64,000 nucleotides of DNA from Prosthecochloris vibrioformis. Its GTDB lineage: Bacteria; Pseudomonadota; Alphaproteobacteria; Sphingomonadales; Sphingomonadaceae. The stretch covers positions 2,369-66,368 of the forward strand of contig CALRJR020000009.1 in assembly GCA_943367575.1 (NCBI GenBank), written 5' to 3'. The notes under the pieces were generated by a model, which worked only from the letters and a program-made list of their open reading frames with translations, was not told the origin of the DNA and did no database searches. Positions 21,228 to 56,444 of this stretch are shown in pieces (the first letter of the stretch is position 1; each line of letters starts with the position of its first letter). The position numbers and the translations under genes were made by a program.

Positions 21228-21265
21228 CGAACCCCTCCCGCGTCATGCCAGGCGACCGAACGCCT

Positions 21266-23349: not shown

Positions 23350-23529
23350 CTACGCGTCGCAACCGGCTGATTACGCGCGCCGTTGCGGCCAATTATGTCG
23401 GTTTCGGGTCAATTAGTTATTCGCTCGCGCACAAGACCCTACGCCCGCGCCATGGCTCAATCCCCTCACTGTCGGGAGCATCCTGAACCAACGGGAGCCC
23501 CATCTCGGGAGGATCAACACGATTGGGGG

Positions 23530-29287: not shown

Positions 29288-29343
29288 CGCATCGCACCAC
29301 CGCGCAAAAACAAGGACTTGTGCGCGGCGATACAAGACCTTCC

Positions 29344-29353
29344 GGCAATTGCC
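29344..29353. promoter_or_regulatory. perfect 10-bp palindrome GGCAATTGCC inside the operon gap
   Basis: It lies in the 145-nt gap between the VOC and LigB-type genes, 79 nt upstream of ATG 29432. A hairpin CCGCGCA..TGCGCGG lies just upstream, at about 29296-29322. Confidence 0.3.
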
Positions 29354-29431
29354 CGCCAAGTTTTGTCGGGTCGCAGACATCGGGGCGAAGAGGAAGGGCA
29401 TGATCGATCAGAACAGAAACGCGGTGGCACG

Positions 29432-30252: not shown

Positions 30253-31344
30253 ATGGGCCTCATCATCCCGCACGGCGCGATCCGCGATGCGATCCAGCCG
30301 ACCGCGCTCCACCGGCTGCGCGCGACGCCGGAAACGGTTCACTGGGGCTATTTCTCGCCCGAAATCGCGCCGGCACTGACCGTGCGCAGCGGCGACCTGA
30401 TCCAGGCGCAGGCGGTGACGCATCATGCCGGGGACGACCCCGAACTGATGTTCGACGACGACATCCGACGCATCTTTGCCGAGATCGACCCGGAGACACG
30501 CGCGCCCGGATGCCACATCATGACCGGCCCGATCTACGTCGAAGGTGCAGAGCCCGGCGACATGCTGGAGGTGCGCTATTTCGAGATGGTGCCCCGGTTC
30601 AACTATGGCTCGAACCTGCAGGCCAATTGGGGGCACCTCTATCAGGAATTCGGCGAGACCGAGCGGGTCACCATTTACCGCATCGATCCGGGCTCCAACA
30701 CCGCCAGCGCGCTCTATGCCTATGATGTCGAGGAGAAATATGTCGTGCCGGGGCGGATCACCAACTGCCCGGTCTGCGACCGTCAGCCCGCCCTGCCCGG
30801 AATCACCATTCCGGCGCGGCCGCACCTTGGCACAGCGGGCGTGGCACCGGCAGTGAACGAACCGGTCAGCACCATCCCGCCCGGCCTGCACGGCGGCAAT
30901 ATCGACAATTGGCGGATCGGCGCGGGCGCGCGCATGTATTATCCGGTCCAGGTCGCCGGTGGGCTGTTCTCGATCGGCGACCCGCATATCAGCCAGGGCG
31001 ATGGCGAGATCAGCGGCACCGCGATCGAAGCCTCGCTCGACGTGCTGTTCCAGATCGTGCTGCGCAAGGATTTCAGCTTCCCCTCGCCCCTGCTCGAAAC
31101 CGGCGATTGCTGGATCGTCCATGGCTTTGGCGCTGATCTCGACCAGGCGATGAAGAGTGCGTCGATCGACATGCTGCATTTGCTGACCGAGCATCAGGGG
31201 CTGTCGCGCACCGACGCCTATTCGCTGATGAGCGTGGCGAGCGATTTCGGCGTGACCCAGGTGGTCGACGGGACGCAGGGTATTCATTGCCGCATCGACC
31301 GGCGCATCTTCGGCGGCAAGGGGACCGTGCGTGACCCCGAATAA
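30253..31344 (+). CDS. acetamidase/formamidase family amidohydrolase (free-standing copy)
   Basis: AGGGGGA RBS upstream. It has the blocks TVHWGYF, AVTHHAGDDPE, GPIYVEGAEPGD, GGNIDNWR and GDPHISQGDGEISGTAIE. It is paralogous to the C-terminal half of 33190..35562. Confidence 0.85.
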   Translation: MGLIIPHGAIRDAIQPTALHRLRATPETVHWGYFSPEIAPALTVRSGDLIQAQAVTHHAGDDPELMFDDDIRRIFAEIDPETRAPGCHIMTGPIYVEGAEPGDMLEVRYFEMVPRFNYGSNLQANWGHLYQEFGETERVTIYRIDPGSNTASALYAYDVEEKYVVPGRITNCPVCDRQPALPGITIPARPHLGTAGVAPAVNEPVSTIPPGLHGGNIDNWRIGAGARMYYPVQVAGGLFSIGDPHISQGDGEISGTAIEASLDVLFQIVLRKDFSFPSPLLETGDCWIVHGFGADLDQAMKSASIDMLHLLTEHQGLSRTDAYSLMSVASDFGVTQVVDGTQGIHCRIDRRIFGGKGTVRDPE

Positions 31345-31374
31345 GCCCATAGCGGCAAGCGATTGCGACTGACG

Positions 31375-32376
31375 ATGCTGGCCCGGTTGCGCCTCGATCC
31401 GTTCCTGATGATCCTGCTGGCGGTGCTGGCGGTGGCAACGCTGCTGCCAGTGCGCGGCGGCGCGGCCATTGCCGCCGATCATTTGACCGACGTGGCGATC
31501 GCGCTGCTGTTCTTTCTGCACGGGGCGAAGCTGTCGCGGGCTGCGATCCTGGCAGGGATCGGCGCGTGGAAACTGCATCTGCTGGTGCTGAGCGCAACCT
31601 ACGCGCTGTTTCCGCTGCTCGGCCTCGCCATCGTAGCGGCGCTGGGCGGGGCGGTCGATCCGCTGGTGGCGATGGGGGTGCTGTACCTCGCCATCCTGCC
31701 CTCGACCGTCCAGTCGTCGATCGCCTTTACCGCCATCGCCGGGGGCAATGTCCCCGCCGCGATCTGCAGCGCGTCGCTGTCGAACATCCTGGGTATTCTG
31801 CTGACCCCGTTGCTAGCAGCCTGGCTGATCGGCGGACATGCGGCGGGCGGCGATTTCTTCGTCCAGGCGGTGACGTCGATCGCCACCCAATTGCTGCTGC
31901 CCTTCATCCTCGGCCATCTCGCCCGGCCGTGGATCGGCGGGTGGATCGACCGCCATCGCCAGCTGGTGACGCGGGTCGATCGCGGCGTGATCCTGCTGGT
32001 CGTCTACACCGCGTTCAGCGCCGCCGTGGTGGCGGGGTTGTGGACGCGGCTGTCGATCAGCGACCTAGCTACGATCGCGGCCATCTGCGCGGTCCTGCTG
32101 GCAGCAGTGCTGCTACTCACCCGGCTTGCCGCGCGGCTGGCCGGTCTGCCGCGCCCGGACGCCATCGTGCTGCTGTTCTGCGGATCGAAGAAAAGCCTGG
32201 CGAGCGGCGTGCCGGTGGCCGGGGCGCTGTTTCCCGCCGCACAGGTCGGCGTCGTGATCCTGCCGCTGATGCTGTTCCACCAACTGCAACTGATCGTCTG
32301 TTCGATCATCGCGGCGCGCCTGGCCCGCCAGAACGAACCCATCGAGGAGCCCGACCATGTCCGACGCACTGCTTGA
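31375..32376 (+). CDS. bile acid:sodium symporter (BASS) family transporter, YfeH-like
   Basis: ORF 31363..32376 opens with TTG, and the first ATG is at 31375 (MLARLRLDPFLMILL). It is a multi-TM protein. Confidence 0.8.
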   Translation: MLARLRLDPFLMILLAVLAVATLLPVRGGAAIAADHLTDVAIALLFFLHGAKLSRAAILAGIGAWKLHLLVLSATYALFPLLGLAIVAALGGAVDPLVAMGVLYLAILPSTVQSSIAFTAIAGGNVPAAICSASLSNILGILLTPLLAAWLIGGHAAGGDFFVQAVTSIATQLLLPFILGHLARPWIGGWIDRHRQLVTRVDRGVILLVVYTAFSAAVVAGLWTRLSISDLATIAAICAVLLAAVLLLTRLAARLAGLPRPDAIVLLFCGSKKSLASGVPVAGALFPAAQVGVVILPLMLFHQLQLIVCSIIAARLARQNEPIEEPDHVRRTA

Positions 32377-33169
32377 GATCCGGCCGATGACCCGCCAGAT
32401 CGGCGCGGAGATCTTCGGCGTCGACCTCAACCAGCCGCTCGACGAAGCGATGGTCGCCGCCATCCACGATGCGCTGATGGTGCATCAGGTGATCTTCTTC
32501 CGCGACCAGCACTTCACGCATGAGGAGCACAAGCGCCTCGGTCGCTATTTCGGCGATCTGGCCCTGCACAGCGGGGTCGCGGGCCTGCCTGACCATCCCG
32601 AAATCGTGGCGATCCATGCCGACGCCAACAGCACCTATATCGCCGGCGACAACTGGCATTCGGACCTCAGCGAATATGAAGAGCCGCCGATGGGTAGCAT
32701 CCTGTATATGCACACATTGCCTGACAGCGGCGGCGATACGCTGTTTTCGAGCATGTATGCCGCCTATGACGCGCTGTCCCCGGCGATGCGGGCGTTTCTC
32801 GACCCGCTGACCGCCGTGCATGATTCCAACCACATCTATCGCGAGCTGTTTCCCGACGTTCAGAAAACCTATCCCTGCAACACCCACCCGGTGGTGCGGA
32901 CGCATCCGGTGACCAAGCGCAAATGCCTGTTCGTGTCGGAATCCAAGACGACGCGGATCAACGGCCTGTCCAAGGCGGAAAGCAGCGCCGTGCTGCGCTT
33001 CCTGGCGGATCATGTGAAGGACCCGAATTTCCAGGTCCGCTTCCGCTGGCAACCGCATTCGGTCGCCTTCTGGGACAATCGCTGCACCCAGCATTTTGCG
33101 GTGTGGGACTATTTCCCCGATACGCGGTCGGGCACGCGGGTGACGATCAAGGGCGACCGGCCCTATTGA
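32357..33169 (+). CDS. TauD/TfdA-family Fe(II)/2-oxoglutarate dioxygenase (copy 1)
   Basis: GAGGAG RBS upstream, with a 20-nt overlap with the BASS gene. It aligns along its whole length with E. coli TauD as I recall it (DNWHSD iron motif, HPVVRTHPVT, FRWQPHSVAFWDNRCTQH). Confidence 0.88.
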   Translation: MSDALLEIRPMTRQIGAEIFGVDLNQPLDEAMVAAIHDALMVHQVIFFRDQHFTHEEHKRLGRYFGDLALHSGVAGLPDHPEIVAIHADANSTYIAGDNWHSDLSEYEEPPMGSILYMHTLPDSGGDTLFSSMYAAYDALSPAMRAFLDPLTAVHDSNHIYRELFPDVQKTYPCNTHPVVRTHPVTKRKCLFVSESKTTRINGLSKAESSAVLRFLADHVKDPNFQVRFRWQPHSVAFWDNRCTQHFAVWDYFPDTRSGTRVTIKGDRPY

Positions 33170-33189: not shown

Positions 33190-35562
33190 TCAGGCGGTGA
33201 ACAGGGCCTTGCGGATGATCGCATGCACGCCCCAATTGCCGTTCACCACCTGAGACACCCCGAAATCGACCCCGACCGACAGCAGCGAGATCGCCTCGTC
33301 CTCGCTCAGCCCCTTGGTCGTGATCAGAAAGCGGCGCGCCTTGCGGAACGCATCGCGCATCGCCCCGTCGATGCTGCTTTTCTTGTAGACCTCGCTCTGC
33401 GCGTCCTCGCCGAGTTCCTTGAGGTAATCGGGGTGGCTGAAGCCCATGATGACCCATTCGCTCTCGGTCTCGATTAGCGGATAGTCGAGGTCGCGCAGGT
33501 GATCGCGCAACTCGCTCGCCGGGTGCAGCACCACCTGGATCAGCGCATTCATCGAACACTCGATCGCCGTGCCGCACAGTTCGGAATCGCCCTGTGAGGC
33601 GTGCGGATCGCCCAGCGACAACAGCCCGCCCGCGACCTGAACCGGAAGGAACACGCTCGATCCCGGCCCGGTGCGCCAATTGTCGAGATTGCCGCCAAAG
33701 CTGTTCGGCGGCACCGAATCGACCAGCCCGGAATGCGCCGGTGCCAGCGCGATCACGCCGAAATGCGGGCGGATCGGGATTTCAACATTGCGCAGGATTT
33801 CGTAATTCCGCTCGATCGTCGCGGGGTTCACCGGCACGCCGGGATAGTCGTAGCGGACATGGACCCGGCCCGACGGATCGGTCTGAGGCGTCCAGCGGAA
33901 ACTATACACCGCATGGGCGCTGGGCGGACGCGCGCCGCCATGTTCGACCTCGTAAATGGTGATGACCTCGCGCTGCTTCGGCTCGGTCAGCAGGTCGCTA
34001 TAGTGAAAGCCCCAGAAGGTCGCGGCATTGCTGCCGAACGCCTTGCCGGCAAAGCGCGGATTGCCGCTCTGCCGCGCCCTCAGGTCGAGGATGCGGACCT
34101 CGACGACATCGCCGGGCATTGCGCTCTGAATGGCGATCGGCCCGGTGCAGATATGGACGCCGAACCCCTCGCCCGGCCCGCGCCCGACCGCGCTCGCATC
34201 CATCGGCCCGGCACCGCGCCGGTCGATCGCCTTGTGATGATGGTCCCAATGGAACACGCTTTCGGCAGCGGGATCGCCCTGCACCATCCGTTCGGGATCG
34301 TCATTGGCGTGATGGGTCAGGGTCTCGACCGAGACGAAATCGCCCGACCGGATCGTCAGCACGGGTTTCAGCGCGCGACTGAAATAGCCCCAATGCACCG
34401 TCTGTGGATTGGCCGGGAGGTGATGGTGCCGCACGGGTTCGGTGACCGGTGGCGCATCGTCCCCGCCCGGTGCCACCGCATCAGCATCAGCCTCAGCATC
34501 CGCATCAGCTTCGGGCACAACCGCCAGGGTCCGGTCACGCCGCGCGGGGCGACCCCGGCGCGGCATCTCCTCGGGCGGTGCATCCCCCACGCCCTTGCGA
34601 TACTCGCGCGGCGACACGCCATATTGCTCACGAAACGCGCGGCTGAACGACGCGCTATCGTTGAACCCCCATTGGAACAGAATATCGGAGATCGACTTCT
34701 GGACATGCAGCGGGCTGCGCAGGTCGAGCCGACAGCGTTCGAGCCGCCGCACCTTCACATAATGGCCAAAACTGTCGTCGATCGATTCGAACAGCTTTTG
34801 CAGATAGCGCGGCGAAATGCCGTGTTCGGTGGCGATCTGCTGATAATTCAGGTTGGGATCGCTCAGCCGCATCTCGATCGTCTGGAAAATCCGCTCCAGC
34901 AGTCCCGCGCGCATGCCGGCGGCACCGCCCATCGCCTTTGGCGGCGCATTGTCCAGCAGTGCGGACAGCAGAAACTCCGGGAGCGCCAGTTCCACCGGCC
35001 GGGCATGATCGGTCGTCATGTCCATGATCGTGTCGGCAAGCGATCGGAGCATCCCGGCGAACACCCGCCCCGCCCCCGCCTCGGCCGCAATCCGGCGGGG
35101 ATGATCGGGCAACGGCGCCTTGAGCCGCGCGGTGATGATCGCCGGCGGCAAGCGGACGATCAGCACGCGATTGTCGCCGGAGGAGACGAACCGTGCGACG
35201 GATTCGCTCCGCGCGGCCATCAGGTCGCCGTCGACCAGCTCGCTCTCACCCGTCGCCGTCGTCACCCGTGCGCTGCCGTCCATCATCAGCGTCAGCCACA
35301 GGCCGCCCGGCTCTTCGCTGAAATCCAGCGCCCAGCCCTGGGCCGTGCCGGTCAGACGGATGAAATCGATCCCCTGCCCGCTGCGAAAATGGACAAGCTC
35401 GCCATAGGGATCGTCGAGCACCTGCTCGAGCGTGATCGAAAGCCGTTGCAATGCGAAGCGCCATGCGTCGCGGCGCTGTTCGCGGGGATAGGCGTTGGTA
35501 GTAAAACGCAACGAACAATGGTCCCTGGTTGCAGGCCCTGCTCCTTGCCCGGCCGATCTCAT
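33190..35562 (-). CDS. AraC-family transcriptional regulator fused to a complete acetamidase/formamidase domain (790 aa)
   Basis: This is a single uninterrupted ORF, with ATG 35562 verified. Residues about 1-220 form an AraC-type effector region. Residues about 225-323 form the dual HTH (ISPRYLQKLF..., FNDSASFSRAFREQYGVSPREYRK). Residues about 324-377 form an acidic/Pro-rich linker with EADADAEADADA. Residues about 378-790 form the formamidase family domain (TVHWGYF, TLTHHANDDPE, GGNLDNWR, GDPHASQGDSELCGTAIE). Confidence 0.8.
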   Translation of the reverse strand: MRSAGQGAGPATRDHCSLRFTTNAYPREQRRDAWRFALQRLSITLEQVLDDPYGELVHFRSGQGIDFIRLTGTAQGWALDFSEEPGGLWLTLMMDGSARVTTATGESELVDGDLMAARSESVARFVSSGDNRVLIVRLPPAIITARLKAPLPDHPRRIAAEAGAGRVFAGMLRSLADTIMDMTTDHARPVELALPEFLLSALLDNAPPKAMGGAAGMRAGLLERIFQTIEMRLSDPNLNYQQIATEHGISPRYLQKLFESIDDSFGHYVKVRRLERCRLDLRSPLHVQKSISDILFQWGFNDSASFSRAFREQYGVSPREYRKGVGDAPPEEMPRRGRPARRDRTLAVVPEADADAEADADAVAPGGDDAPPVTEPVRHHHLPANPQTVHWGYFSRALKPVLTIRSGDFVSVETLTHHANDDPERMVQGDPAAESVFHWDHHHKAIDRRGAGPMDASAVGRGPGEGFGVHICTGPIAIQSAMPGDVVEVRILDLRARQSGNPRFAGKAFGSNAATFWGFHYSDLLTEPKQREVITIYEVEHGGARPPSAHAVYSFRWTPQTDPSGRVHVRYDYPGVPVNPATIERNYEILRNVEIPIRPHFGVIALAPAHSGLVDSVPPNSFGGNLDNWRTGPGSSVFLPVQVAGGLLSLGDPHASQGDSELCGTAIECSMNALIQVVLHPASELRDHLRDLDYPLIETESEWVIMGFSHPDYLKELGEDAQSEVYKKSSIDGAMRDAFRKARRFLITTKGLSEDEAISLLSVGVDFGVSQVVNGNWGVHAIIRKALFTA
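34478..34512 (-). repeat. short imperfect tandem repeat encoding EADADAEADADA in the interdomain linker
   Basis: The plus strand reads gcatcagcatcagcctcagcatccgcatcagcttc (6-nt and 18-nt periodicity). Confidence 0.7.
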
Positions 35563-35620: not shown

Positions 35621-37015
35621 TCACGCGTCGAACGGTGCCGCGCCCTCTCCATAAACAGACATAGCGGATGCCGCGGCGGGACGGTCGGACGTGCGGCCAC
35701 AAATTGCCAACATGGTCAGCGCATAGATCAGCGCGCTCGACGCCATGTCGCCCGGATTCGGTCGCCAGCGCGGCATCCCGGTGGTGATCGCCGGGATGCG
35801 GTGCATGTTGAACACATTATGGTCACGCCACATGCTGGAATAGACCGGATGCGCCCGCTCGACCGGGGCACCCCGCGCCAGTCGCGTGGCAGCATCGACG
35901 GCACCGGCAAGCGGGGCAACCGCGGCGTCCTCCGCCTCGAACCCGTGGCGGACGACCACCGGTTCGACATCGAAGTCCTCGACATCCACCGCACGCATTG
36001 CCGCAACGATGCCGTGCATCGCGTCCGCCGCCTTCTGCCGGGGCGCGAGCGCGACATCGAGATAGAGGGCGCACACTTCGGTCCCCGCACCGAAATCCAT
36101 CGGCGCACCGCCGCGCACCGACGCGATCTGGACGCGCGGGACCGACCGACCGCCGCGAACGTCATGCACCGATACCGCTTCCCAGGCCTGGCTCCAGCGG
36201 TGCAGCGCCTCGATCACCGGGCCGAGGCGATAGATCGGGTTGGGATGGTCCACCGCCCGCTCGGGTGTTTCGAGGATCGGGGTGAACACCCCGCGCCCAA
36301 AGATCCGCACCCGGAACAGCGCATAGCCGCACCCGGTCCAGGTCATGCCGAAATCGGTCCCCTCCGCCGCGATGGCATAGTCGGGCGCGACCCCGCCATG
36401 ATGGAACAGATAATGCGCGCCGATATCCTTGCCGAGATAGGCGACGCCTTCATATTCCTCGATCGGTTCGGGGCCGATCTCGCCCGGACAGGCGGTGAGC
36501 CACGCCTTGCCCGCCAGCGTGATCCCCGCCTTGTTCAGCGCCTTGGCCGCGATCAGGAAACAGGACATCGGGCCACGATCGTTGGAGATCGGATAGCCGC
36601 GCAGCCGCCCGTCTTCGTCCAGCCAGCATTGCGTCCATTCGGGATCGGCCAGCGTTGCCTCACGATAGCGGAAGCGATCCTGATGGGTGATGCCGCTCGG
36701 GCTTTCGGTGTCGAGATGCGCGGTCAGCAACAGATTGGGGCCGACGCCATGGCCGCCGATCTCACCGATGATGTTCGGCCGCTCCGGCGTCGCGCCGACC
36801 TTGCGCGGGCGAAAGCCTTCGCGCTGCATCCAGTCGAACACGAATTGCGCCGCGGCGGCTTCGCTGCGCGAGGGCGCAGGAATATTGCCGAGCGCGAGCG
36901 CGAGCTGAACCAGCTCGTCGGTGTCGATCGCAGCGGCGATAGCGTCGCGTTCCGCTGCGCTGACGGCATAGGGTGCGTGGGCCGGGTCGGCGAATGGCGC
37001 GGGCGTGCCGGTCAT
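35621..37015 (-). CDS. M20-family metallopeptidase / amidohydrolase (ArgE/DapE/carbamoylase-like)
   Basis: It is the 3' part of the 907-aa ORF 35621..38344. The true start is ATG 37015, which overlaps the MFS stop (ATGA). It starts MTGTPAPFADP and has the H-x-D metal block LLLTAHLDTE. Confidence 0.82.
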   Translation of the reverse strand: MTGTPAPFADPAHAPYAVSAAERDAIAAAIDTDELVQLALALGNIPAPSRSEAAAAQFVFDWMQREGFRPRKVGATPERPNIIGEIGGHGVGPNLLLTAHLDTESPSGITHQDRFRYREATLADPEWTQCWLDEDGRLRGYPISNDRGPMSCFLIAAKALNKAGITLAGKAWLTACPGEIGPEPIEEYEGVAYLGKDIGAHYLFHHGGVAPDYAIAAEGTDFGMTWTGCGYALFRVRIFGRGVFTPILETPERAVDHPNPIYRLGPVIEALHRWSQAWEAVSVHDVRGGRSVPRVQIASVRGGAPMDFGAGTEVCALYLDVALAPRQKAADAMHGIVAAMRAVDVEDFDVEPVVVRHGFEAEDAAVAPLAGAVDAATRLARGAPVERAHPVYSSMWRDHNVFNMHRIPAITTGMPRWRPNPGDMASSALIYALTMLAICGRTSDRPAAASAMSVYGEGAAPFDA

Positions 37016-38265
37016 GCGACGTGCGCTGCCAGCGCTGCGACCGGGCTGTGCGCGCCAGCGCCATAGCGGGGCAGGAGCAGCAACAGCGCCATGCCCGACG
37101 ACAGCGCGATGATCGAAACGATCACCGCAAACTGGTAGCTGCCCGTCACATCGAACCCATGGTCGAGCAGCACCGGCGTAATCCCCTGCGCCGCGATGAT
37201 CGCCGAATACATGACGCCGATGATCGCGCCAAAAGCCCGCGTCCCGAAATAGCGCGCGACATAATAGGGCAGCGCACCATATTGCGCGCCCATGCCGATC
37301 CCCAGCAACAGCCCGGCGGCGATCAGCACCGGCACACCTTCGCCGAACTGCAGCAGCGCCAGCCCGATGATCGCCATCGCCACCATCGGGATGACGATGC
37401 GCGGCGTCGGAAACCGGTCGAGCAGCCGCCCACAGGCAATCTGCCACGCCGAGGTCATCAGCGCGAAACAGCTCAGCACCGCCGTCCCGACATCGACCCC
37501 ATAGCCGCGATCGGCGAGGATCGGGATGACATGGCTGAAGATTGCGGTGGTGCAGCCCGCGCCGGATGCGATCGCGACGAGGATGATCCAGAAGCGCGGC
37601 AAGCGCGCCGCTTCGCCCAGCGTCATGCCGACCACCGCGACCGGACCCTCCCCCGCCGAAGCCTCCCGCGCCGGGGCGTCGCGCAGCAGGGTCAGCACCG
37701 CAGGCAGGCCGATCAGCAGGATGATCGCGCCCAGCGCGAGATACCCCGATCGCCAGCCCTGCTGCGCGACAACCGCTGCGGCAACGATCGGCAACAGGAC
37801 CGATCCCACGCCATTGCCCGCTCCCGCGCTGATCCCCAGCGCGGTGCCGCGCCCGGCGTGATACCATTCGGCGATGACCTTGGAGTAGATCGGGGTCGAC
37901 GCCATCGCGCCGAACAGGCTGACCGCCAGAAACACGGCGTAAAACTGAACCAGCGAGGCAGTGGTCAGCGACAGCGCCGCCACCGCCAGCCCGTAGAGCG
38001 CAAGGCCCGGCAGGATCACGCGCCGCGCGCCATGACGGTCGGCGATCCGTCCGATCAAGGGATAGGCGATTGCCCCGGTCACAGCCATGATACCCAGCGC
38101 GACCGAGATCGCCGCGCGGGGCCAGCCAAACTCGGCGGACAGCGGCAGCAGGAACAGCCCGAACACCGCATGGACCGCAGGAGTAGTGCTGACCGCGTTG
38201 CCGAGGGTGCAGGCGATCAGCACGCCGGTCCGCTCGCGCGCGCCCCCGCTCACAGCACCGGCCAC
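37012..38265 (-). CDS. MFS transporter
   Basis: It is 417 aa with a GTG start at 38265 and a 12-TM-like profile. It carries the loop motif GRIADRHGARR. Confidence 0.85.
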   Translation of the reverse strand: MAGAVSGGARERTGVLIACTLGNAVSTTPAVHAVFGLFLLPLSAEFGWPRAAISVALGIMAVTGAIAYPLIGRIADRHGARRVILPGLALYGLAVAALSLTTASLVQFYAVFLAVSLFGAMASTPIYSKVIAEWYHAGRGTALGISAGAGNGVGSVLLPIVAAAVVAQQGWRSGYLALGAIILLIGLPAVLTLLRDAPAREASAGEGPVAVVGMTLGEAARLPRFWIILVAIASGAGCTTAIFSHVIPILADRGYGVDVGTAVLSCFALMTSAWQIACGRLLDRFPTPRIVIPMVAMAIIGLALLQFGEGVPVLIAAGLLLGIGMGAQYGALPYYVARYFGTRAFGAIIGVMYSAIIAAQGITPVLLDHGFDVTGSYQFAVIVSIIALSSGMALLLLLPRYGAGAHSPVAALAAHVA

Positions 38266-39641
38266 AGGCTTGGCGTCGGCTTGCCCGCGCGGGCAAGGAC
38301 ATCGACGGCAGCGGTTTCGACCTCCGCAAACAGCCGCTCTTCATCGATCAGAGTCGACCGGTAGTTGTCGATCACTCGCCGCCCATCCACCCACACGCTG
38401 TGCACTCCGCGCCCGTCGGCGGAATAGACGAGCTGGTTGACGACATTGAGCAAAGGTCGCCATTCTGGGCGGTCGCGATCGTGCAATACGAAATCGGCTT
38501 TCTTGCCCACCTCAAGCGATCCGATCCGGTCGGCCATCCCCGCCCCCTTCGCGCCGTTGATCGTCCCCATTTCCAGCACCTGATAGGCGGAAAACAGGCT
38601 CGCATCGCGGCGCGAATCCTTGAACAGTCCGGCGGTCACGAACATCGCGCGCATCAGGTCGGCGGCATTGCCGTTATTGTTGCCGTCGGTGCCGAGCTGG
38701 AGATTGACGCCAGCGGCGGCCATTTCGGGGAATTTTCCGACCGCGGTCGCGCCATAGGCACCCTTCATCGCGGTCATCGGGCAATGGGTGATGTTGGTCC
38801 CGCTCGCCGCGATCATCGCCACCTCTTCATCGTCGAGATGGATCGCGTGGGTCAGCGACAGATGCGGGCCGAGCACGCCCAGATCGGACAGATGGGCGAT
38901 GGCACGGCGGCCGGTGGTCGCCAGATAGAAATCGGGATCGGCCGGATCGGCGCTCATATGCGCGCTGATCCCCGCGCCATGCGCAGCGGCGAGCGCCGTC
39001 GCCTCGCGCCACAGATCGTCGGTAGCGGTGTTGTGCCCGACCAGGCACGGCCATGCCGCGATCAGCGGGTCGTCGGTGCCGGGGTATCGCGCCAGCTCGG
39101 ACTCGATCGTCGCCACCGCCTGTCGGGTCAGCGCAGCCTGATCGTCGCCCGGCGCAAAGGCGCGGTCCTGCACCCATTGCCCGACCCGCCCGCGAATGCC
39201 GGTCGCGCCCAGCGCATCGACCACCGTGTCGAGATCGAGGATCGTCCCGGCCTCGATGAAGCACGTCGTGCCCGAACGCAGCATCTCCAGCGCAGCGAGT
39301 TGCGCCGCGATCCGCTCTTCTTCCGGGGTCTGCGCAAGATAGGTGGGGATCAGCCATTCAAAGACATTGGTCGCCCAGTCGGCATCGTCCGGGACATTGC
39401 CACGCGTGATCGGCTCACCCGTGATGTGAACATGGCAGTTGACCATGCCCGGCGTCACCACGAACCGGTCGCGGCCATCGATGACCTCACGCGCGACGAC
39501 GGTCTGCTCCACCAGATCGGACGGTCCGACCGCGACGATGCGGTCGCCCGCGATCGCCAGCGCGCCGTCGCGAAAGATGCGCCGTTCGGCATCCATCGTC
39601 ACCACCCAGCAATGGGTGACCAGCAGATCAGCGGCGATCAT
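38250..39641 (-). CDS. amidohydrolase-superfamily deaminase/chlorohydrolase-type enzyme (ATZ/TRZ, MtaD, SsnA-like)
   Basis: The HxH metal motif is GMVNCHVHITGEP and the late block is LQLGTDGNN. ATG 39641 overlaps the upstream stop (ATGA). An alternative ATG lies at 39647. Confidence 0.82.
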   Translation of the reverse strand: MIAADLLVTHCWVVTMDAERRIFRDGALAIAGDRIVAVGPSDLVEQTVVAREVIDGRDRFVVTPGMVNCHVHITGEPITRGNVPDDADWATNVFEWLIPTYLAQTPEEERIAAQLAALEMLRSGTTCFIEAGTILDLDTVVDALGATGIRGRVGQWVQDRAFAPGDDQAALTRQAVATIESELARYPGTDDPLIAAWPCLVGHNTATDDLWREATALAAAHGAGISAHMSADPADPDFYLATTGRRAIAHLSDLGVLGPHLSLTHAIHLDDEEVAMIAASGTNITHCPMTAMKGAYGATAVGKFPEMAAAGVNLQLGTDGNNNGNAADLMRAMFVTAGLFKDSRRDASLFSAYQVLEMGTINGAKGAGMADRIGSLEVGKKADFVLHDRDRPEWRPLLNVVNQLVYSADGRGVHSVWVDGRRVIDNYRSTLIDEERLFAEVETAAVDVLARAGKPTPSLWPVL

Positions 39642-40288
39642 GCCCATGCCGCCGCGACAGCGTCGGCGCGGACCAGCAACGCGCAATTCTTGTATAGAAT
39701 GTCGAGCGCGCTGGAGTGCAGCCCATCCTCATAGGCCCCCGTCGCGTCGGACACGACGAACACATGGTAACCGCGATGAAAGGCGGCACGCGCCGTCTGA
39801 TCGACACAGCAATCGGTGCTGAACCCGGTCATCACCAATGTTTCGATGCCGCGTGCGCGCAGCTGGTCGTCGAAATCGGTGCCGTGGAAACTGTCGAACA
39901 ACAGCTTTTCGATCTCGATATCGCCCGGCTCTGGCTTCACGCCATAATAGTCCGCGCCGCCATCATCGGCGCGACAGATTGCCTCGCCCCCCGGCATCCC
40001 CTTGCGCGCCATCAGCGTCTTGAGCGCCACCGAGTCCGTTTCGGGCCGTGTGACGACACGCATGAAGGCGATGGTCACGCCACGCGCCCGCGCCGCCGCG
40101 ATCAAATCTGCGATCCGGTCCATCGCGGGCGGAACGCTCGACAGGTCGGCACCCACGCGGCCGAGCAGACCATGCGGGGCAGCGAAATCGACCTGGACAT
40201 CGACGACGACCAGCGCGGTGCGCTCCGGCGCCAGCATCAGCGCGAGATCGGCAGCAGCAACATGCGGCAGCGTGTCAGCCTCAACCAT
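39638..40288 (-). CDS. isochorismatase-family cysteine hydrolase (RutB-like)
   Basis: The blocks contain the Asp-Lys-Cys triad candidates: LVVVDVQVDF, IEKLLFDSF and MTGFSTDCCVDQTA. Confidence 0.85.
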   Translation of the reverse strand: MVEADTLPHVAAADLALMLAPERTALVVVDVQVDFAAPHGLLGRVGADLSSVPPAMDRIADLIAAARARGVTIAFMRVVTRPETDSVALKTLMARKGMPGGEAICRADDGGADYYGVKPEPGDIEIEKLLFDSFHGTDFDDQLRARGIETLVMTGFSTDCCVDQTARAAFHRGYHVFVVSDATGAYEDGLHSSALDILYKNCALLVRADAVAAAWA

Positions 40289-41411
40289 GCGCCGCTTCCA
40301 TCACCCGCGTCGGGAACCGCTCACGCAGGACCGGCAGCACCTCCTGTGCAAAACGCGGGATACCGGTCAGGTAATCGGGAAAGATCAGCATCAGCCCGTC
40401 GGTGCCCGACACCTCGAACAGTTCGGTCAGCTTGTCGGTCACCGTCTCGGGCGAACCGAGGACATAGGGCGCCATGAATGTCGAACGCGCCTTTTCGACA
40501 AAGGCATTTTCCTTGCCGCCCTGTTCGGTGTCGAAAAAGCCATAGGCGCGCAGCATGCCCTGCAGCGCCGCTTCGTCGAGGCCCGCGCGGAAATGATCGG
40601 CGGTTGCCTGCGCCGCCGCATCGCTGTCGTCCAGCACCACGGTCATCATCGAATAGGTCCGCATATAGCGGCCCTGCTTCGCGGCGGTTTCCTTGGCCGC
40701 GCGGCTGCTCTTGCCCAGTCCGACGGGGTCGCCGCCCGACAGGAAGATCGCGTCCATCTCGTCCGCGGTGAACTGCATCCCCTTGCCCGAGGTGCCGGCA
40801 CAGACGGTGAAGGGCCGACGCAGCGGCTTGGGCCAGGAGGTCGCCGCTTCCAGCTGGAAATAGCGGCCGTCCATCGACACCGACTCTTCGGTCCACAACC
40901 GCTTGATCGCCGCGATCCATTCATAGGCAAGGTCGTAGCGGCCGTCGTGATCGACCCCCTCCGGCCATGCCCCGAACTGCGCAAATTCGCCGCGATAGGA
41001 TCCGGTGACGAGGTTCAGCCCCGCGCGACCGCCGCTGATATGGTCGAGCGTCGCGATCATCTTCGCCGCCACGCCGGGGTTCTGCAGGATGGTGTGGATC
41101 GTCGCCCACACCTTCACCTTGTTGGTGACTTCGGCCAGCGCCGCCATCAACAGCACGGAATCCAGCGTGGACTCCCAATGCCTGATCTCGCCGCCATAGC
41201 CCTTGAACTTCGCCATCGCCATGATGAAGTCGAGCCCGGCCGCCTCCGCCGCCACCGCGACCTGGCGGTTATAGCCATAGGAACCATCGAGCGGCGGGGC
41301 GTTTTTCGACAGGATCCAACCGCCATTGGCCATCGGCATGAACACGCCCAGATCCTTGCCCCCGGTGTCGGACGGAAGGTCAAAGGCAACAGGCTGTGGC
41401 AGGTCGGACAT
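40281..41411 (-). CDS. luciferase-like (LLM) flavin-dependent monooxygenase, RutA-like
   Basis: It aligns along most of its length with E. coli RutA as I recall it (GVFMPMANGGWILS, FIMAMAKFKGYGG, TLDHISGGRAGLNLVTG, VCAGTSGKGMQF). It overlaps the next gene by 8 nt. Confidence 0.85.
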   Translation of the reverse strand: MSDLPQPVAFDLPSDTGGKDLGVFMPMANGGWILSKNAPPLDGSYGYNRQVAVAAEAAGLDFIMAMAKFKGYGGEIRHWESTLDSVLLMAALAEVTNKVKVWATIHTILQNPGVAAKMIATLDHISGGRAGLNLVTGSYRGEFAQFGAWPEGVDHDGRYDLAYEWIAAIKRLWTEESVSMDGRYFQLEAATSWPKPLRRPFTVCAGTSGKGMQFTADEMDAIFLSGGDPVGLGKSSRAAKETAAKQGRYMRTYSMMTVVLDDSDAAAQATADHFRAGLDEAALQGMLRAYGFFDTEQGGKENAFVEKARSTFMAPYVLGSPETVTDKLTELFEVSGTDGLMLIFPDYLTGIPRFAQEVLPVLRERFPTRVMEAAHG

Positions 41412-41502
41412 TCGGCTGGTTCCCCCGATTGGAGAGGCCAGTCTAGCCGCGAGCGGGCGGCATTCTTGATCGGCGGCGCATATTCTGTTGGCCGCGCCGG
41501 TT

Positions 41503-42390
41503 TCAGCCCGCCACCGCCGCGATCACTGCCGCCCGCGCGGGCATCGCGGGGATCGCGCCGACCGTCTGGGTGCATAGCGCGGCGGCGGCATTGGCGATCG
41601 GCAGCGCGTCGGCCAGCCCCATCCCCTCCGCCATCAGCGCCGCGAGCGCGCCACAGAAACAGTCGCCCGCACCCACCGTGTCGCACGGGGCGACCGACAG
41701 CGCGGGTGCATGGATCGCTTCGTCATCGAACACCGCCACCGCCCCCTGCCCGCCCAGCGTCACCACGATCTGCTGCTGCGGATGCGCACGCAGCGCGCGC
41801 GCAGCCGCGACTGCCTCCGCCGGGCCGGAGATTGCCGGCACTTCCGCATAGCCAGCCAGCTCATGCTGGTTGACGATCAGGATATCGGCGTGCGCGAACA
41901 ACGCGCGCGCGGCGGGGATGAAGGGTGCGGCGTTGAGCAGGCGCGGGCCGGACGATGCGGCAAAGGCCGACGCGATCGTGTCGAGCGGGATTTCGAGCTG
42001 CGCAAGCATCAGACCCGCTCCTTCCGACCCTCCATCAGGCGCGAGCTGGCCATTGGCACCCGGCGCGACGATGATCTGGTTTTCTCCCGCCGCATCGACC
42101 GCGATCATCGCCGCACCGGTCGGCGCATCGGCCAGTGTGGCAATGCTGCCAACATCGACTCCCTCACCCTCCAGCACCGCACGCATCCAGTCGCCATCGG
42201 CGTCCGCACCGACCGCACCAGTCATCGTGACCCGCGCGCCCATCCGCGCGGCGGCGACCGCCTGGTTCGCACCCTTGCCGCCGGGCAGCCGCGTCACCTG
42301 TTCCGCCAGCACCGTTTCTCCTGCAGCGGGCAGTGCGTCGACCGACAGGATCGTATCGACATTGATCGAACCCAGAATATGCACGTCCAT
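41503..42390 (-). CDS. rbsK: ribokinase (PfkB family)
   Basis: ORF 41503..42477, with the start at ATG 42390 (GGGAGAG upstream). It has MDVHILGSINVDT, GGKGANQAVAAARMG and the C-terminal DTVGAGDCFCGAL anion-hole block. Confidence 0.88.
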   Translation of the reverse strand: MDVHILGSINVDTILSVDALPAAGETVLAEQVTRLPGGKGANQAVAAARMGARVTMTGAVGADADGDWMRAVLEGEGVDVGSIATLADAPTGAAMIAVDAAGENQIIVAPGANGQLAPDGGSEGAGLMLAQLEIPLDTIASAFAASSGPRLLNAAPFIPAARALFAHADILIVNQHELAGYAEVPAISGPAEAVAAARALRAHPQQQIVVTLGGQGAVAVFDDEAIHAPALSVAPCDTVGAGDCFCGALAALMAEGMGLADALPIANAAAALCTQTVGAIPAMPARAAVIAAVAG

Positions 42391-42549: not shown

Positions 42550-43392
42550 ATGACGAACTGGCTCATCACCGGGGTTAGCGGCGGACTGGGGCACGCACTG
42601 GCGCAAGCGGCGCTCGCGCGCGGCGATGCGGTCGTCGGGACGGTACGGCGGGTCGCCGACAAACAGGCGTTCGAGGCGCTGGCCCCCGGCCGCGCGCTGG
42701 GCGTGCTGCTCGACCTGGCCGACCATGCCGCGATCCCCGAAGCCGTCGCGACTGCGCAAGCGTGGCTGGGACAGATCGACCGGCTGGTCAACAATGCCGG
42801 GTTCGGCATGGTCGGCGCGATCGAGGAAACAACGATTGCCGAGGCAAAGGCGCTGTTCGACGTCAACCTGTTCGGGGCAATGGCGATGATTCAGGCGGTG
42901 CTGCCCGGGATGCGCGCGCGCCGCGCTGGCCACATCGTCACCATCACCTCGCTCAGCGGCTTTGCGCCATGGTGGGGAACCGGCATTTACGGCGCGAGCA
43001 AATATGCGCTGGAGTGCATCGGCCAGACGCTGGCGCAAGAGGTTGAGTCGCTGGGCATCCGGGTCACCAACATCGCGCCGGGCGGGTTTCGCACGGGGTT
43101 TGCCGGACGAGGACTGATTGAGGCTGCGACGGTGATCGACGATTATGACGCCACCGCCCGGCAATCGAAACACAGCCTGATGGCGGGCCGGGGCCAGGAG
43201 GCCGGCGATCCGGCGCGGGCGGCGGCGGCGATGCTGGTCGCGCTCGATGCGCCGGAACCGCCGCGGCATTTGTTCCTCGGCGAAGACGCGCTGCGCCATG
43301 CGCGCGAGCATTTCGACATGCTCGAAGAAGAGATGCGCCGCTGGGAGCCGCTGTCGCTCACCACTGGCTTTGTCGCGGAGCCGGTGGCGTGA
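42550..43392 (+). CDS. SDR-family oxidoreductase
   Basis: It has the TGxxxGxG block ITGVSGGLGHAL, the NNAG block, and the YGASK catalytic Tyr/Lys. Confidence 0.88.
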   Translation: MTNWLITGVSGGLGHALAQAALARGDAVVGTVRRVADKQAFEALAPGRALGVLLDLADHAAIPEAVATAQAWLGQIDRLVNNAGFGMVGAIEETTIAEAKALFDVNLFGAMAMIQAVLPGMRARRAGHIVTITSLSGFAPWWGTGIYGASKYALECIGQTLAQEVESLGIRVTNIAPGGFRTGFAGRGLIEAATVIDDYDATARQSKHSLMAGRGQEAGDPARAAAAMLVALDAPEPPRHLFLGEDALRHAREHFDMLEEEMRRWEPLSLTTGFVAEPVA

Positions 43393-44201
43393 GCGCGCCG
43401 TTCACCATCGACCGGCTCACCCCGCATATGGGCGCGGAGCTGCACGGCATCGACCTGACCCGCCCCATCGAACCGGAAACCGCGACGGCGCTGCGTCAGG
43501 CGCTGACCGACCATCTCGTGCTGTTCTTTCGCGACCAGCCCATCGACTTTGCCGCGCACAAGGCGCTGGCACGCGTGTTCGGCGAGATCCATGTCGCACC
43601 CGCCTCCGCCGCATGGGCGGTGGAGGGGCATCCCGAGGTCACGCGCATTCATGCCGACGCCGACTCGAAATATGTCGCGGGGGAGGATTGGCATTCGGAC
43701 ATGACCTGCGATCCCGAGCCGCCTTTCGGGTCGATCCTGCACCTGGTGACCGTCCCCGCAACCGGGGGCGACACGGCGTTTTCAAACATGTTCCTGGCCT
43801 ATGATGCACTGTCGGAGCGGATGAAGGCCTATCTCGACGGGCTGACCGCGACGCATGATGCCGCGCGGGTGTTTGCCGCCATCGCGCCACCGGGAACCGT
43901 GTTCAACCAGTCCTCGCACCCGGTCATCCGCACCCATCCGGTCAGCGGGCGCAAGGCGATCTTCGTCAACAAGCAGTTCACCGCGCGGATCGACGGCATT
44001 CCCAAGGACGAAAGCACGGCATTGCTGTCCTTCCTTACCGCGCATGTCCAGCGCCCCGAATTCCAGTGCCGCTTCCGCTGGCGTCCGCATTCGATCGCCT
44101 TCTGGGACAATCGCGCGGTGCAGCATTCGGCGATCTGGGACTATTTCCCGCAAACCCGATCGGGCTACCGCGTCACGGTGCGCGGCGACCGCCCGTTCTG
44201 A
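43389..44201 (+). CDS. TauD/TfdA-family Fe(II)/2-oxoglutarate dioxygenase (copy 2)
   Basis: The GTG start overlaps the SDR stop (GTGA). It has EDWHSD, HPVIRTHPVSG and FRWRPHSIAFWDNRAVQH. It shares the C-terminal WDYFP.TRSG.RVT..GDRP with copy 1. Confidence 0.85.
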   Translation: MSAPFTIDRLTPHMGAELHGIDLTRPIEPETATALRQALTDHLVLFFRDQPIDFAAHKALARVFGEIHVAPASAAWAVEGHPEVTRIHADADSKYVAGEDWHSDMTCDPEPPFGSILHLVTVPATGGDTAFSNMFLAYDALSERMKAYLDGLTATHDAARVFAAIAPPGTVFNQSSHPVIRTHPVSGRKAIFVNKQFTARIDGIPKDESTALLSFLTAHVQRPEFQCRFRWRPHSIAFWDNRAVQHSAIWDYFPQTRSGYRVTVRGDRPF

Positions 44202-44819: not shown

Positions 44820-45899
44820 CTATGAGAGCAGCCGCGGGACGGCGGCGGTTGCGATGTCGAACCGCGCATCGGGATGCTCGGCCGCGCCGTCGCGAGGGGC
44901 TGCGCGGTGCTGGACCACGCCGTTCTTGCCGAAATCGGGCACCACTGGCCGGTCGGTCTTGCTGCTCAGCCACAGCCGCAGCAGATGCCGCCGCCGCTGC
45001 GGCTCCGGCCAGTCGGTAAAGCCCGTCCGGGCATGCAGCGCGGCATAGTTGGACAGCCACTGGATGTCGCCCGGACGGAAATCCATCTCGATCGCCATCC
45101 CGGGCTCATAGGTAATCTCGTCGAACAGGCGCAGGACCTCGACCTGATCGGCGGTGAGCTGCGGGACGCCGGGATATTCCTGCGCGGTCAGGATGTAGAG
45201 CGAACCGGCATACATGCTGAACACGCCATCGACCATCGAGATGATCGGCGAAGTATAGGTGAGCGCCGGGGACTCGGCATCCTGCCGCCGCCAGTCCCAA
45301 TGGAACGGCTCCAGCAACAGCGGCGCCAGGTCGGGGCGGCGGCGCAGGATCTCGTTATAGATTTCCGCGCCGGAGACGAGGCAGGACAGCCCCCCTTCGC
45401 GCGCCGGACGCAGGCACATCAGCGCGACAATGTCCGAACTGTCGGAATGATAGACCAGCTGGTCGCGCACCTTGGACGATTTTGCGGTGGGATCGTCCAT
45501 CGTCTTGTCGGACGTGGCATAGACATGGTCGACCAGATCGCCGAGCTCGTTCTGGCGGATCGGGTCGCCCATGTGCAGGCCGAGGATGTAGTAGATCGCC
45601 GCCGACAGCGCGTCCGAATAGAGATGGGTTCGCAAGCCGCGCACCAGCACGAAGCCGCGCCCAAAATCGACCGTCTCCCGCCACTCCGCCGCCGCGTCTG
45701 CGGTCGCGACCAGCGGATAGTCTTCCGCCTGCACGCTGCGCAGGTCGGGGCTGTGCTCGACAAAGCGCCGCCCCAGTTCTTCCAGCTCGGCCACCTGTTC
45801 CTCCGACAGGCGATAGATCCATTCGTCGCTGCCAATCAGGCGATCGCCGCGCCAGGCAGCGCGGGTGGCAATCGGACGCAACAGATCTTGGACGGGCAT
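44820..45899 (-). CDS. TauD/TfdA-like (clavaminate-synthase fold) dioxygenase, longer divergent member
   Basis: It is 359 aa. It has the His-x-Asp candidate YHSDSSD and the late ALHARTGF block. The overall pattern matches the taurine catabolism dioxygenase family. Confidence 0.7.
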   Translation of the reverse strand: MPVQDLLRPIATRAAWRGDRLIGSDEWIYRLSEEQVAELEELGRRFVEHSPDLRSVQAEDYPLVATADAAAEWRETVDFGRGFVLVRGLRTHLYSDALSAAIYYILGLHMGDPIRQNELGDLVDHVYATSDKTMDDPTAKSSKVRDQLVYHSDSSDIVALMCLRPAREGGLSCLVSGAEIYNEILRRRPDLAPLLLEPFHWDWRRQDAESPALTYTSPIISMVDGVFSMYAGSLYILTAQEYPGVPQLTADQVEVLRLFDEITYEPGMAIEMDFRPGDIQWLSNYAALHARTGFTDWPEPQRRRHLLRLWLSSKTDRPVVPDFGKNGVVQHRAAPRDGAAEHPDARFDIATAAVPRLLS

Positions 45900-46125: not shown

Positions 46126-46200
46126 TGGCTGGGGCGGCTGGATTCGAACCAGCGCATGGCGGTACCAAAAACCGCTGCCTTACCGCTTGGCTACGCCCCA
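46126..46200 (-). tRNA. tRNA-Gln: tRNA-Gln (anticodon UUG), CCA encoded
   Basis: The reverse complement is TGGGGCGTAGCCAAGCGGTAAGGCAGCGGTTTTTGGTACCGCCATGCGCTGGTTCGAATCCAGCCGCCCCAGCCA. The acceptor stem is TGGGGCG/CGCCCCA, the anticodon stem is GCGGT/ACCGC, the loop is TTTTGGT, and the T-arm is GGTTCGAATCC. It is nearly colinear with E. coli tRNA-Gln. Confidence 0.95.
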
Positions 46201-56323: not shown

Positions 56324-56444
56324 GGAGAGCGCGCTACACCAACCGGGGGGAACATCAACTATTCCAACCAACTTGTCGCAAAAGTGTGTCAGGCTTTATT
56401 GCGCGCGCGAAGAAACGCTGTGTTTCCAATCGGAACGCCCCCGC

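Follow-up and report, generated by a model that had tools for sequence, protein, structure and literature searches.

The 64-kb window of contig CALRJR020000009.1 surveyed here (GC content ~66%) carries a conserved, horizontally mobile gene island of about 20 genes (~23.4–46.1 kb), one arm of which is a six-gene operon on the minus strand. In a genome scan, the closest relatives of the window were Sphingomonas metagenome-assembled genomes, in which the operon's luciferase-like monooxygenase (LLM) is 97–98% identical. Judging from the gene content, we consider it on balance probable, although far from certain, that the island catabolises an N-heterocycle with a cyclic-ureide (pyrimidine-2,4-dione-type) ring by Rut-like chemistry. 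The evidence centres on three proteins encoded by the operon: the LLM, which is distantly related to the uracil-opening enzyme RutA, a cysteine hydrolase (ISO) of the family that contains RutB, and a predicted aminohydrolase resembling NaaA. The six genes are as follows.

41503–42390, minus strand: ribokinase-like PfkB kinase (RK), ATG start
40281–41411, minus strand: LLM, RutA-like luciferase-like (group C) FMNH2-dependent monooxygenase
39638–40288, minus strand: ISO, isochorismatase-family cysteine hydrolase (RutB/BiuH-like)
38250–39641, minus strand: TRZ/ATZ-type (cog0402) amidohydrolase (AMH), ATG start
37012–38265, minus strand: MFS transporter of the monocarboxylate/oxalate-formate type, GTG start
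35621–37015, minus strand: sixth gene, NaaA-like aminohydrolase

All six reading frames are present at 35621–42390, and they are packed as the original prediction described, with overlaps of 8 nt (LLM/ISO), ATGA (ISO/AMH), 16 nt (AMH/MFS) and ATGA (MFS/sixth gene). The single gap, which had been placed after the ribokinase, does lie between RK and LLM and measures 91 nt, not 92. A TTG at 39686, upstream of the ATG of AMH, is also open. The assignments to the PfkB/ribokinase-like, Bac_luciferase, Isochorismatase, Amidohydro_1 and MFS_1 families were borne out by both Pfam and NCBIfam.

Homologies of the operon proteins

The LLM had been said to align well with RutA, and RutA was indeed its best match in the PDB (5wan, 215 bits over the full length) as well as in NCBIfam, where the score of 261.3 bits lies below the equivalog cutoff of 498.3 bits (TIGR03612). 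SfnG followed as the second-best NCBIfam family with 156 bits, and scored 118 bits in the PDB. Identity to E. coli RutA is 34% over 363 residues with few gaps. In RutA, the O2 pocket required for activity and for flavin-N5-peroxide chemistry is reported to comprise L65, T105, N134, V136 and F224 (PMC7662398). These residues align to M64, T104, N133, V135 and F223 of the LLM, so that four are unchanged and L65 is replaced by Met; T104, N133 and V135 are invariant in an alignment of 12 sequences of the clade. By these comparisons RutA is the closest characterised relative of the LLM, yet the LLM is not a RutA orthologue.

The same picture emerged from a library clustered at 50% identity, in which the clade of the window collapsed to one representative (P0121, 475 bits) with the next scores at 295 bits or less, and in which the ten closest representatives reached 226–304 bits against the RutA model, all below its cutoff. 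In a neighbour-joining tree, built without bootstrap, the window LLM formed part of a tight clade inside an uncharacterised RutA-like group, sister to the group with true RutA; it did not group with a characterised enzyme of unrelated function, which was the phylogenetic check proposed earlier. The nearest representative outside the clade, P0126, lies on a contig of only 1.3 kb with an uninformative gene context, and an exact-sequence look-up of the window LLM returned no record. An RcaE-type LLM, which the original prediction had offered as an alternative, is not backed by the sequence, since the match to RcaE (PDB 5w48) reached 77 bits and covered residues 36–258 only, against 215 bits for full-length RutA; a cluster model built on an RcaE-type riboflavin monooxygenase was rejected on the same ground.

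ISO belongs to Pfam Isochorismatase and is RutB/BiuH-like with an intact catalytic triad, as expected from the claim that the gene after the LLM is an isochorismatase-family hydrolase like RutB. Its NCBIfam scores were 104 bits for BiuH and 97 bits for RutB (TIGR03614, cutoff 378), both below cutoff, and its PDB scores 89 bits for biuret hydrolase and 77 bits for RutB. At 34% identity to E. coli RutB, the triad D30/K128/C161 aligns to D24/K133/C166. On this basis ISO is a member of the family but not a RutB orthologue, being about equidistant from biuret hydrolase and RutB. The idea of a RutA/RutB ring-opening pair thus stands as far as the families are concerned, whereas both proteins are distant paralogues (261 vs. 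498 bits for the LLM, 97 vs. 378 bits for ISO). An s-triazine, cyanurate or biuret pathway, considered on account of the BiuH and AtzA matches, was rejected for want of an AtzD-type ring hydrolase or an allophanate hydrolase and because the context is a poor match.

The label of the sixth gene had to be changed. It had been described as an M20 enzyme of the carbamoyl-amino-acid or beta-alanine synthase type; the protein has no Pfam match, M20 included, and its NCBIfam M20 matches are faint (~35 bits). Instead, it matched NaaA, 5-nitroanthranilate aminohydrolase (PDB 5k8p/5k8m), with 281 bits (E = 1.4e-82), residues 33–442 aligning to NaaA 19–424 with ~45% identity over ~410 residues. With the M20 label displaced by this match, the sixth gene product is predicted to be an NaaA-like aromatic aminohydrolase, and the logic of the pathway changes with it. 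The motif NDRGP of the sixth protein corresponds to NCKGP in NaaA, with Asp where NaaA has Cys, at a position that we take, from M20 motifs, to be the bridging metal ligand. We know of no other characterised member of the NaaA family. Two long reading frames touch this gene: one of 907 codons on the minus strand (35621–38344) crosses, out of frame, the genes for the NaaA-like and MFS proteins, and an antisense one of 421 codons on the plus strand (35801–37066) covers the NaaA-like gene and was the one chosen by a simple GC3-based gene caller. The 907-aa frame and the long antisense frames are artefacts of high GC content that could mislead automatic annotation.

AMH is an Amidohydro_1 protein whose best NCBIfam matches scored 261 and 240 bits, with every equivalog score below cutoff, and whose PDB matches include 4dyk (162 bits) and 2paj (64 bits). 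Its metal ligands (HVH, a later His and Asp) align with those of 4dyk and 4f0r, but the HxxE motif has lost its glutamate to Ala or Pro (AHMS[A/P]), both here and in all the orthologues that were examined, including L003–L078. The earlier assignment to an ATZ/TRZ-type deaminase is therefore sound as to the family (cog0402, which includes guanine, pterin and isoxanthopterin deaminases) and doubtful as to the activity: the loss of the catalytic glutamate across the subgroup indicates that it is probably not a standard deaminase, and a canonical deaminase role is doubted. RK scored 240 bits against NCBIfam ribokinase (TIGR02152, cutoff 299.65), matches Pfam PfkB and contains GSINVD, PGGKGANQA, NQHE (NxxE) and DTVGAGD (DTxGAGD), which we take to be ribokinase motifs. 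The MFS protein matches Pfam MFS_1, with NCBIfam scores of 126 bits for SfMCT and 79 bits for the OFA family, both below cutoff.

Conservation, mobility and regulation of the island

A genome scan with one genome per species confirmed 433 LLM relatives, of which the best 80, from Alpha- and Gammaproteobacteria, were kept as loci. LLM and ISO are direct neighbours in 78 of these 80 loci, which come from other species. The full six-gene order recurs in the nearest Sphingomonas, Sphingobium and Novosphingobium genomes, bearing out the expectation that the operon structure is kept in relatives, and the same families, differently ordered, reappear in Sphingomonas, Novosphingobium, Sphingobium, Altericroceibacterium, Hyphomonas, Asticcacaulis and other Caulobacteraceae, Parvibaculum and Pseudoxanthomonas. 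The six-gene arrangement is not due to chance. Gene presence was scored by tblastn with the window proteins, and families were counted in the 65 loci with full 10-kb flanks: ISO was found in 65, SDR in 61, the AraC-FmdA regulator in 59, MFS in 55 and RK in 53–56 (depending on the identity cutoff), followed by TauD (42), the long TauD (41), the NaaA-like gene (40), FmdA (36), AMH (29), Rieske (28) and VOC (28). The NaaA-like gene occurs without AMH in 29 loci, AMH without the NaaA-like gene in 14, both in 11 and neither in 11; AMH and the NaaA-like gene, which thus partly alternate, may cover the same or neighbouring steps. Loci lacking RK were too few among the relatives for its presence to be correlated with a particular oxygenase. 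Some relatives (L081 at 5953–8054 and 11792–13131; L034; L076; L080) carry extra genes within the cluster, namely one for another isochorismatase-family hydrolase, a 196-aa nitroreductase-family gene equal in length to E. coli RutE, a gene for a small VOC protein, and a DIOX_N/2OG-FeII (2-oxoglutarate) oxygenase gene between ISO and AMH.

Plasmid-borne versions, more informative than any other result, extend this linkage. Plasmids of Acinetobacter baumannii and Paraburkholderia graminis carry a compact operon of MFS, LLM, cysteine hydrolase, NaaA-like gene and flavin reductase, flanked by a divergent helix-turn-helix (HTH) regulator gene and containing neither TauD nor aromatic-ring genes. The fourth gene, annotated there as 'peptidase M20' or hypothetical, is 55% (A. 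baumannii) and 62% (P. graminis) identical to the NaaA-like protein of the window, the LLMs being only 45–47% identical. A plasmid of Kozakia baliensis holds nearly the whole island between IS5 copies, also interrupted by IS5 transposases, and adds a flavin reductase together with a VanB-type partner reductase for the Rieske oxygenase. A further copy, with an LLM 67% identical, lies on the 1.76-Mb replicon pSA1 of Novosphingobium resinovorum SA1 (L090, 372735–401844), whose record has no gene annotation, and the island of one sphingomonad relative borders on a phage-type integrase. These signs of horizontal mobility, together with the tRNA-Gln gene at which the island ends, map to 46126–46200 (minus strand) of the window, 3330–4538 of L081 and L086/L089. 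The plasmid versions indicate that LLM, ISO and the NaaA-like protein have stayed together as a module in three proteobacterial classes, and that the island is mobile.

Beyond the operon and its regulatory gap, the island and its right border comprise the following features.

23371–25986, plus strand: TonB-dependent receptor (Pfam Plug and TonB_dep_Rec)
26205–27476, plus strand: MFS transporter of a second type (Pfam MFS_1)
27473–28711, plus strand: Rieske non-haem iron oxygenase, alpha subunit only (Pfam Rieske and Ring_hydroxyl_A)
28802–29287, plus strand: VOC/glyoxalase-fold protein (Pfam Glyoxalase_6)
29318–30217, plus strand: LigB-type extradiol dioxygenase (Pfam LigB)
30253–31344, plus strand: stand-alone acetamidase/formamidase-family (FmdA_AmdA) hydrolase (Pfam FmdA_AmdA)
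31363–32376, plus strand: SBF-like (DUF4137) transporter (Pfam SBF_like, 317 bits)
32357–33169, plus strand: TauD/TfdA-family 2-oxoglutarate dioxygenase, copy 2 (Pfam TauD, 236 bits)
33190–35562, minus strand: AraC-type regulator with C-terminal FmdA-like domain, 790 aa (AraC_binding_2, HTH_18/HTH_AraC, FmdA_AmdA)
41440–41489, minus strand: operator/promoter-like box in the RK–LLM gap, AACAGAAnATGCGC-N5-ATCAAGAA, with TAGACT 18 nt downstream
42550–43392, plus strand: SDR oxidoreductase, divergent from RK (Pfam adh_short; NCBIfam PRK06180, 339 bits, above cutoff)
43389–44201, plus strand: TauD/TfdA-family dioxygenase, copy 1 (Pfam TauD, 237 bits)
44820–45899, minus strand: longer TauD-superfamily hydroxylase (Pfam TauD, 105 bits)
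46126–46200, minus strand: tRNA-Gln (ARAGORN and Rfam), right border of the island

The TonB-dependent receptor, whose family occurs in 23 of 83 related loci and which is 60% identical in N. resinovorum pSA1 and 34% in Kozakia, is the probable left end of the island. On the right, the class IV aminotransferase and hemerythrin genes past the tRNA-Gln were found in 0 of 65 related loci, which sets the extent of the island in the window at ~23.4–46.1 kb. The second-type MFS is weakly related (30–36% identity) to the MFS gene that lies immediately upstream of that for the LLM on the plasmids with the compact operon. The Rieske protein is structurally closest to carnitine monooxygenase CntA (120 bits), and Kozakia carries copies of it (57% identical), of the VOC protein (69%), of LigB (54%, annotated ygiD) and of TauD copy 2 (67%, between the NaaA-like gene and Rieske). 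LigB itself occurs in 12 of 65 loci, with a YgiD-like variant in others, and the SBF-like transporter, present in only 9 of 65, appears to be an accessory gene. The stand-alone FmdA matches PDB 3b9t with 251 bits and shares 37% identity with the C-terminal half of the regulator; the longer TauD-type hydroxylase matches PDB 7n7v and FrbJ with 126–135 bits. RutC (RidA-type), RutD (alpha/beta hydrolase), RutE, RutF (flavin reductase) and RutG (NCS2 permease) were not found at 23–46 kb, and the absence of RutC, RutD, RutF and RutG agrees with what had been predicted; P450, thiamine diphosphate (ThDP) and molybdenum hydroxylase families were not found at 14–58 kb.

The AraC-FmdA protein is encoded by one 790-aa reading frame, its halves being joined by an Ala/Asp/Glu-rich linker; it is matched by a single tblastn segment over residues ~17–790 with 62–97% identity in many genera, and is called as one 769-aa gene in L081. 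It is the probable regulator of the island, and the fused FmdA domain looks like an enzyme-derived sensor. The box in the RK–LLM gap, which can also be written AACAGAATATGCGCCGCCGATCAAGAA followed by TAGACT, is near-invariant in 12 genomes whose LLMs are 59–97% identical, while the remainder of the spacer drifts. At its full 27 nt, the box has a single occurrence in the 64-kb window and none in shuffles; matches of a short degenerate sub-pattern elsewhere in the window were at chance level, a sigma-70 and terminator scan stayed at background level, and a riboswitch search over 22–50 kb returned only the tRNA. A conserved box in this spacer suggests an activator-dependent promoter for the LLM operon, separate from RK, and the operon probably has its own, putative, promoter in the gap. 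From these features we infer a candidate link in which AraC-FmdA probably activates the LLM operon at the box.

Outside the island, the window contains a separate, ordinary-looking cluster on the minus strand at 14123–21242 (MFS, TonB-dependent receptor, Abhydrolase_3 esterase, LacI-family regulator and GDSL lipase/acylhydrolase) and, at 52158–57830 on the same strand, an AcrB-type RND efflux pump (991 bits) with a probable membrane-fusion gene as neighbour. The pump and an ScfR-type regulator at 56445–57830 (HTH_3, Peptidase_M78 and ScfRs) appear to be unrelated to the island.

Proposed pathway and competing explanations

In the known uracil pathway, RutA opens the ring at N3–C4, RutB removes the carbamate, and RutC and RutD handle the labile aminoacrylate. 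From the homologies, the conserved catalytic residues and the gene linkage across genera, we infer a related sequence of steps for the island. The LLM, using O2 and FMNH2 from a flavin reductase such as that encoded in the plasmid versions, would cleave a ring amide bond oxidatively, as RutA does on uracil, and ISO would then act like RutB and BiuH and take off the ureido or carbamoyl group thus exposed. If the opened ring were fused or conjugated to an aromatic ring, the product would be a stable ortho-amino (hetero)aromatic carboxylate instead of a labile aminoacrylate, and the NaaA-like enzyme, in place of RutC and RutD, would convert its amino group to a hydroxyl by hydrolysis; the NaaA substrate 5-nitroanthranilate is itself an ortho-amino aromatic carboxylate. 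Locking of the aminoacrylate by a fused ring would account for an NaaA-like gene that travels with LLM and ISO and for the absence of RutC and RutD. In some genomes, deamination may be performed by the atypical AMH instead.

RK, in turn, would phosphorylate ribose set free from a ribityl or ribosyl substituent. Among the annotated recurrent families (most identified by Pfam, the rest by sequence inspection) no nucleoside hydrolase or phosphorylase was recognised, and oxygenases are abundant. The persistence of RK in this setting suggests that an oxidative reaction would free ribose from an N-ribityl or N-ribosyl group, a type of release known from TauD/TfdA-type and CntA-like Rieske oxygenases. 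The TauD-type and Rieske oxygenases, LigB/VOC, the formamidase-like amidases and the SDR may together serve in stripping of substituents and cleavage of the remaining ring, with Rieske, LigB and VOC suggesting a carbocyclic ring to be cleaved and the FmdA-family amidases suggesting small amide fragments.

Several observations weigh against this proposal. With LLM and ISO far under the RutA and RutB equivalog cutoffs, the substrate and even the bond specificity may differ, and with Asp in place of the Cys of NaaA, so may the chemistry of the sixth protein. AMH lacks the deaminase glutamate. The NaaA-like gene is absent within 10 kb in 25 of 65 loci, 11 of which are also without AMH, so that the deamination step is either not universal or encoded elsewhere. 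The island part of the window yielded no flavin reductase, the Kozakia island and the compact plasmid operons are without ribokinase, and the TauD copies, closest to taurine dioxygenase (copy 1 scored 260 bits in NCBIfam, cutoff 313), have no obvious role in the model.

As to the substrate, the gene features fit flavins best, and our leading guess is a fused pyrimidinedione with a ribityl or ribosyl group, riboflavin for instance. More specifically, and only tentatively, the island could be a Gram-negative route for riboflavin, lumichrome or ribityl-lumazine and the genetic basis of the 'Pseudomonas RF' pathway of the 1960s, a possibility we would sooner doubt than accept. The RutA-like LLM, itself using reduced flavin, would then open ring C of a flavin substrate, ISO and the NaaA-like enzyme would strip two nitrogens, TauD or Rieske would cut the ribityl chain to ribose for RK, Rieske and LigB would cleave the dimethylbenzene ring, and the FmdA-like amidases would hydrolyse oxamide or oxamate.

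A pyrimidine nucleoside, perhaps a modified one (uridine, cytidine, 5-methyluridine or an N-methylated form), is an unlikely but serious candidate, given that RutA is the closest characterised homologue of the LLM. AMH would deaminate cytosine-type rings, the TauD, 2-oxoglutarate and Rieske oxygenases would demethylate, and LLM and ISO would open a ribosylated uracil; the resulting ribosylamine would decay to ribose for RK, and the SDR would reduce malonic semialdehyde as YdfG/RutE do. Such a scheme needs no nucleosidase, gives work to the SDR (adjacent in 61 of 65 loci) and RK (53–56 of 65), and is in line with the 196-aa nitroreductase-family gene of RutE length and the DIOX_N-type 2-oxoglutarate oxygenase of some relatives. 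It leaves no role, however, for the NaaA-like enzyme, whose linkage to LLM and ISO is the tightest across phyla, nor for the Rieske, LigB, VOC or FmdA-like genes, and it is at odds with an LLM that is not a RutA orthologue and with the missing glutamate of AMH. That last point also tells against the opening of a purine or pteridine (xanthine, xanthosine, methylxanthine, lumazine or pterin), which we rate a shade lower still. Here LLM and ISO would yield 5-aminoimidazole-4-carboxylate or 3-aminopyrazine-2-carboxylate for deamination by the NaaA-like enzyme, with the FmdA-like amidases hydrolysing formamide-type fragments; for purines, this would be an aerobic counterpart of the clostridial pathway through 4-ureido-5-imidazolecarboxylate. 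The core logic equals that of the ring-opening route we favour; AMH falls in cog0402 and matches guanine deaminase models as well as PDB 2paj (64 bits), the Rieske protein is closest to C–N-cleaving CntA-type enzymes, and the compact plasmid operons do without ribokinase and aromatic-ring genes. Against it speak Rieske, LigB and VOC, which suggest a carbocyclic ring, the course of standard purine catabolism through urate, and the absence of a nucleosidase for xanthosine.

Least probable by far, to the point that we give it little weight, is an island for sulfur scavenging or other unrelated oxygenations, with an LLM like SfnG or SsuD, TauD acting on sulfonates and the hydrolases as mere neighbours. 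SfnG is the second-best NCBIfam family of the LLM and taurine dioxygenase the best of TauD, but SsuE, a sulfonate ABC transporter and other sulfur genes are all absent, the RutA-type pocket residues are conserved, and the linkage of LLM, ISO and the NaaA-like gene holds over three proteobacterial classes, including two plasmid operons without TauD.

Should the cyclic-ureide proposal be correct, the three enzymes would represent a general module for extracting nitrogen from fused pyrimidinediones (flavins, lumazines, xanthines), and NaaA-type aminohydrolases would gain a natural and widespread role. To our knowledge, the substrates with which amide cleavage by RutA via a flavin-N5-peroxide has been linked to date are mainly uracil and thymine; our results point to a large uncharacterised sister radiation to RutA, many members of which link the LLM to a ureido hydrolase and an NaaA homologue, with distant plasmid-borne LLM homologues in a betaproteobacterium and in Acinetobacter. 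The island may also supply the missing Gram-negative genes for riboflavin degradation which, if true, would matter for the turnover of vitamins and for signalling by lumichrome in rhizosphere and aquatic systems. The AraC-formamidase fusion, together with its candidate operator, offers a tractable enzyme-derived sensor.

Comparison with known systems

Full-text literature searches for the gene set, NaaA homologues, RutA- or RutB-like clusters and lumichrome degradation by sphingomonads returned no description of the system and no published pathway that matched it, consistent with the initial impression that the gene set fits no known pathway. We class it as a Rut-like oxidative ring-opening system with new downstream logic. 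As in the Rut system of E. coli (RutA-G, b1012 operon), the LLM gene is directly followed by that of an isochorismatase-family hydrolase, the genes overlap, and the O2-pocket residues of RutA and the triad of RutB are conserved. The flavin reductase of the plasmid versions recalls RutF, and the SDR or nitroreductase-family gene close by in many loci recalls YdfG/RutE; flavin reductase and the nitroreductase-family gene occur only in some relatives. The system differs from Rut in that identity to RutA and to RutB is 34% each, with both proteins far below the equivalog cutoffs, and in that RutC, RutD and RutG are replaced by the NaaA-like protein, the atypical amidohydrolase, ribokinase, TauD, Rieske, LigB and FmdA-like proteins. 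The sixth protein agrees with NaaA of Bradyrhizobium sp. JS329 (PDB 5k8m–5k8p) in overall length and in the HLDT and GEI motifs, whereas the context in the window is without 5-nitrosalicylate dioxygenase or lactonase.

Parallels in the order of steps come from the Lum and Rca systems of flavin degradation and from the Stadtman pathway. During degradation of 7-carboxylumichrome by Nocardioides simplex, the opened pyrimidine ring is converted to 3-aminoquinoxaline-2-carboxylate by the ureido hydrolase LumI (24 kDa), after which LumM (52 kDa) forms the 3-oxo acid (PMC12746152); this order is a direct precedent for the proposed sequence of ring opening, ureido hydrolysis by a ~24-kDa enzyme and hydrolytic deamination to an oxo acid. 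There, too, Rieske and extradiol dioxygenases act afterwards on the remaining ring, and in the RcaA-E riboflavin cluster of Microbacterium a ribokinase accompanies ribose release (PMC12746152). Ring opening in the island would be oxidative, by the LLM, whereas that by LumH is hydrolytic; the window LLM is not RcaE-like (77 bits); and, to set beside the Lum signature genes LumU (P450), LumK/L (ThDP), LumJ (xanthine-oxidase type), LumA-D and LumE, a search at 14–58 kb of the window gave only the Rieske alpha subunit and the LigB-type dioxygenase, with no P450, ThDP or molybdenum hydroxylase family. In Pseudomonas RF, studied by Stadtman, degradation reportedly starts at ring C while the ribityl chain is still in place; ribose is then released, and a quinoxalinedione is cleaved to a pyrone and oxamide (PMC12746152). 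Judged by the genes it carries, the island could explain the order of steps reported there.

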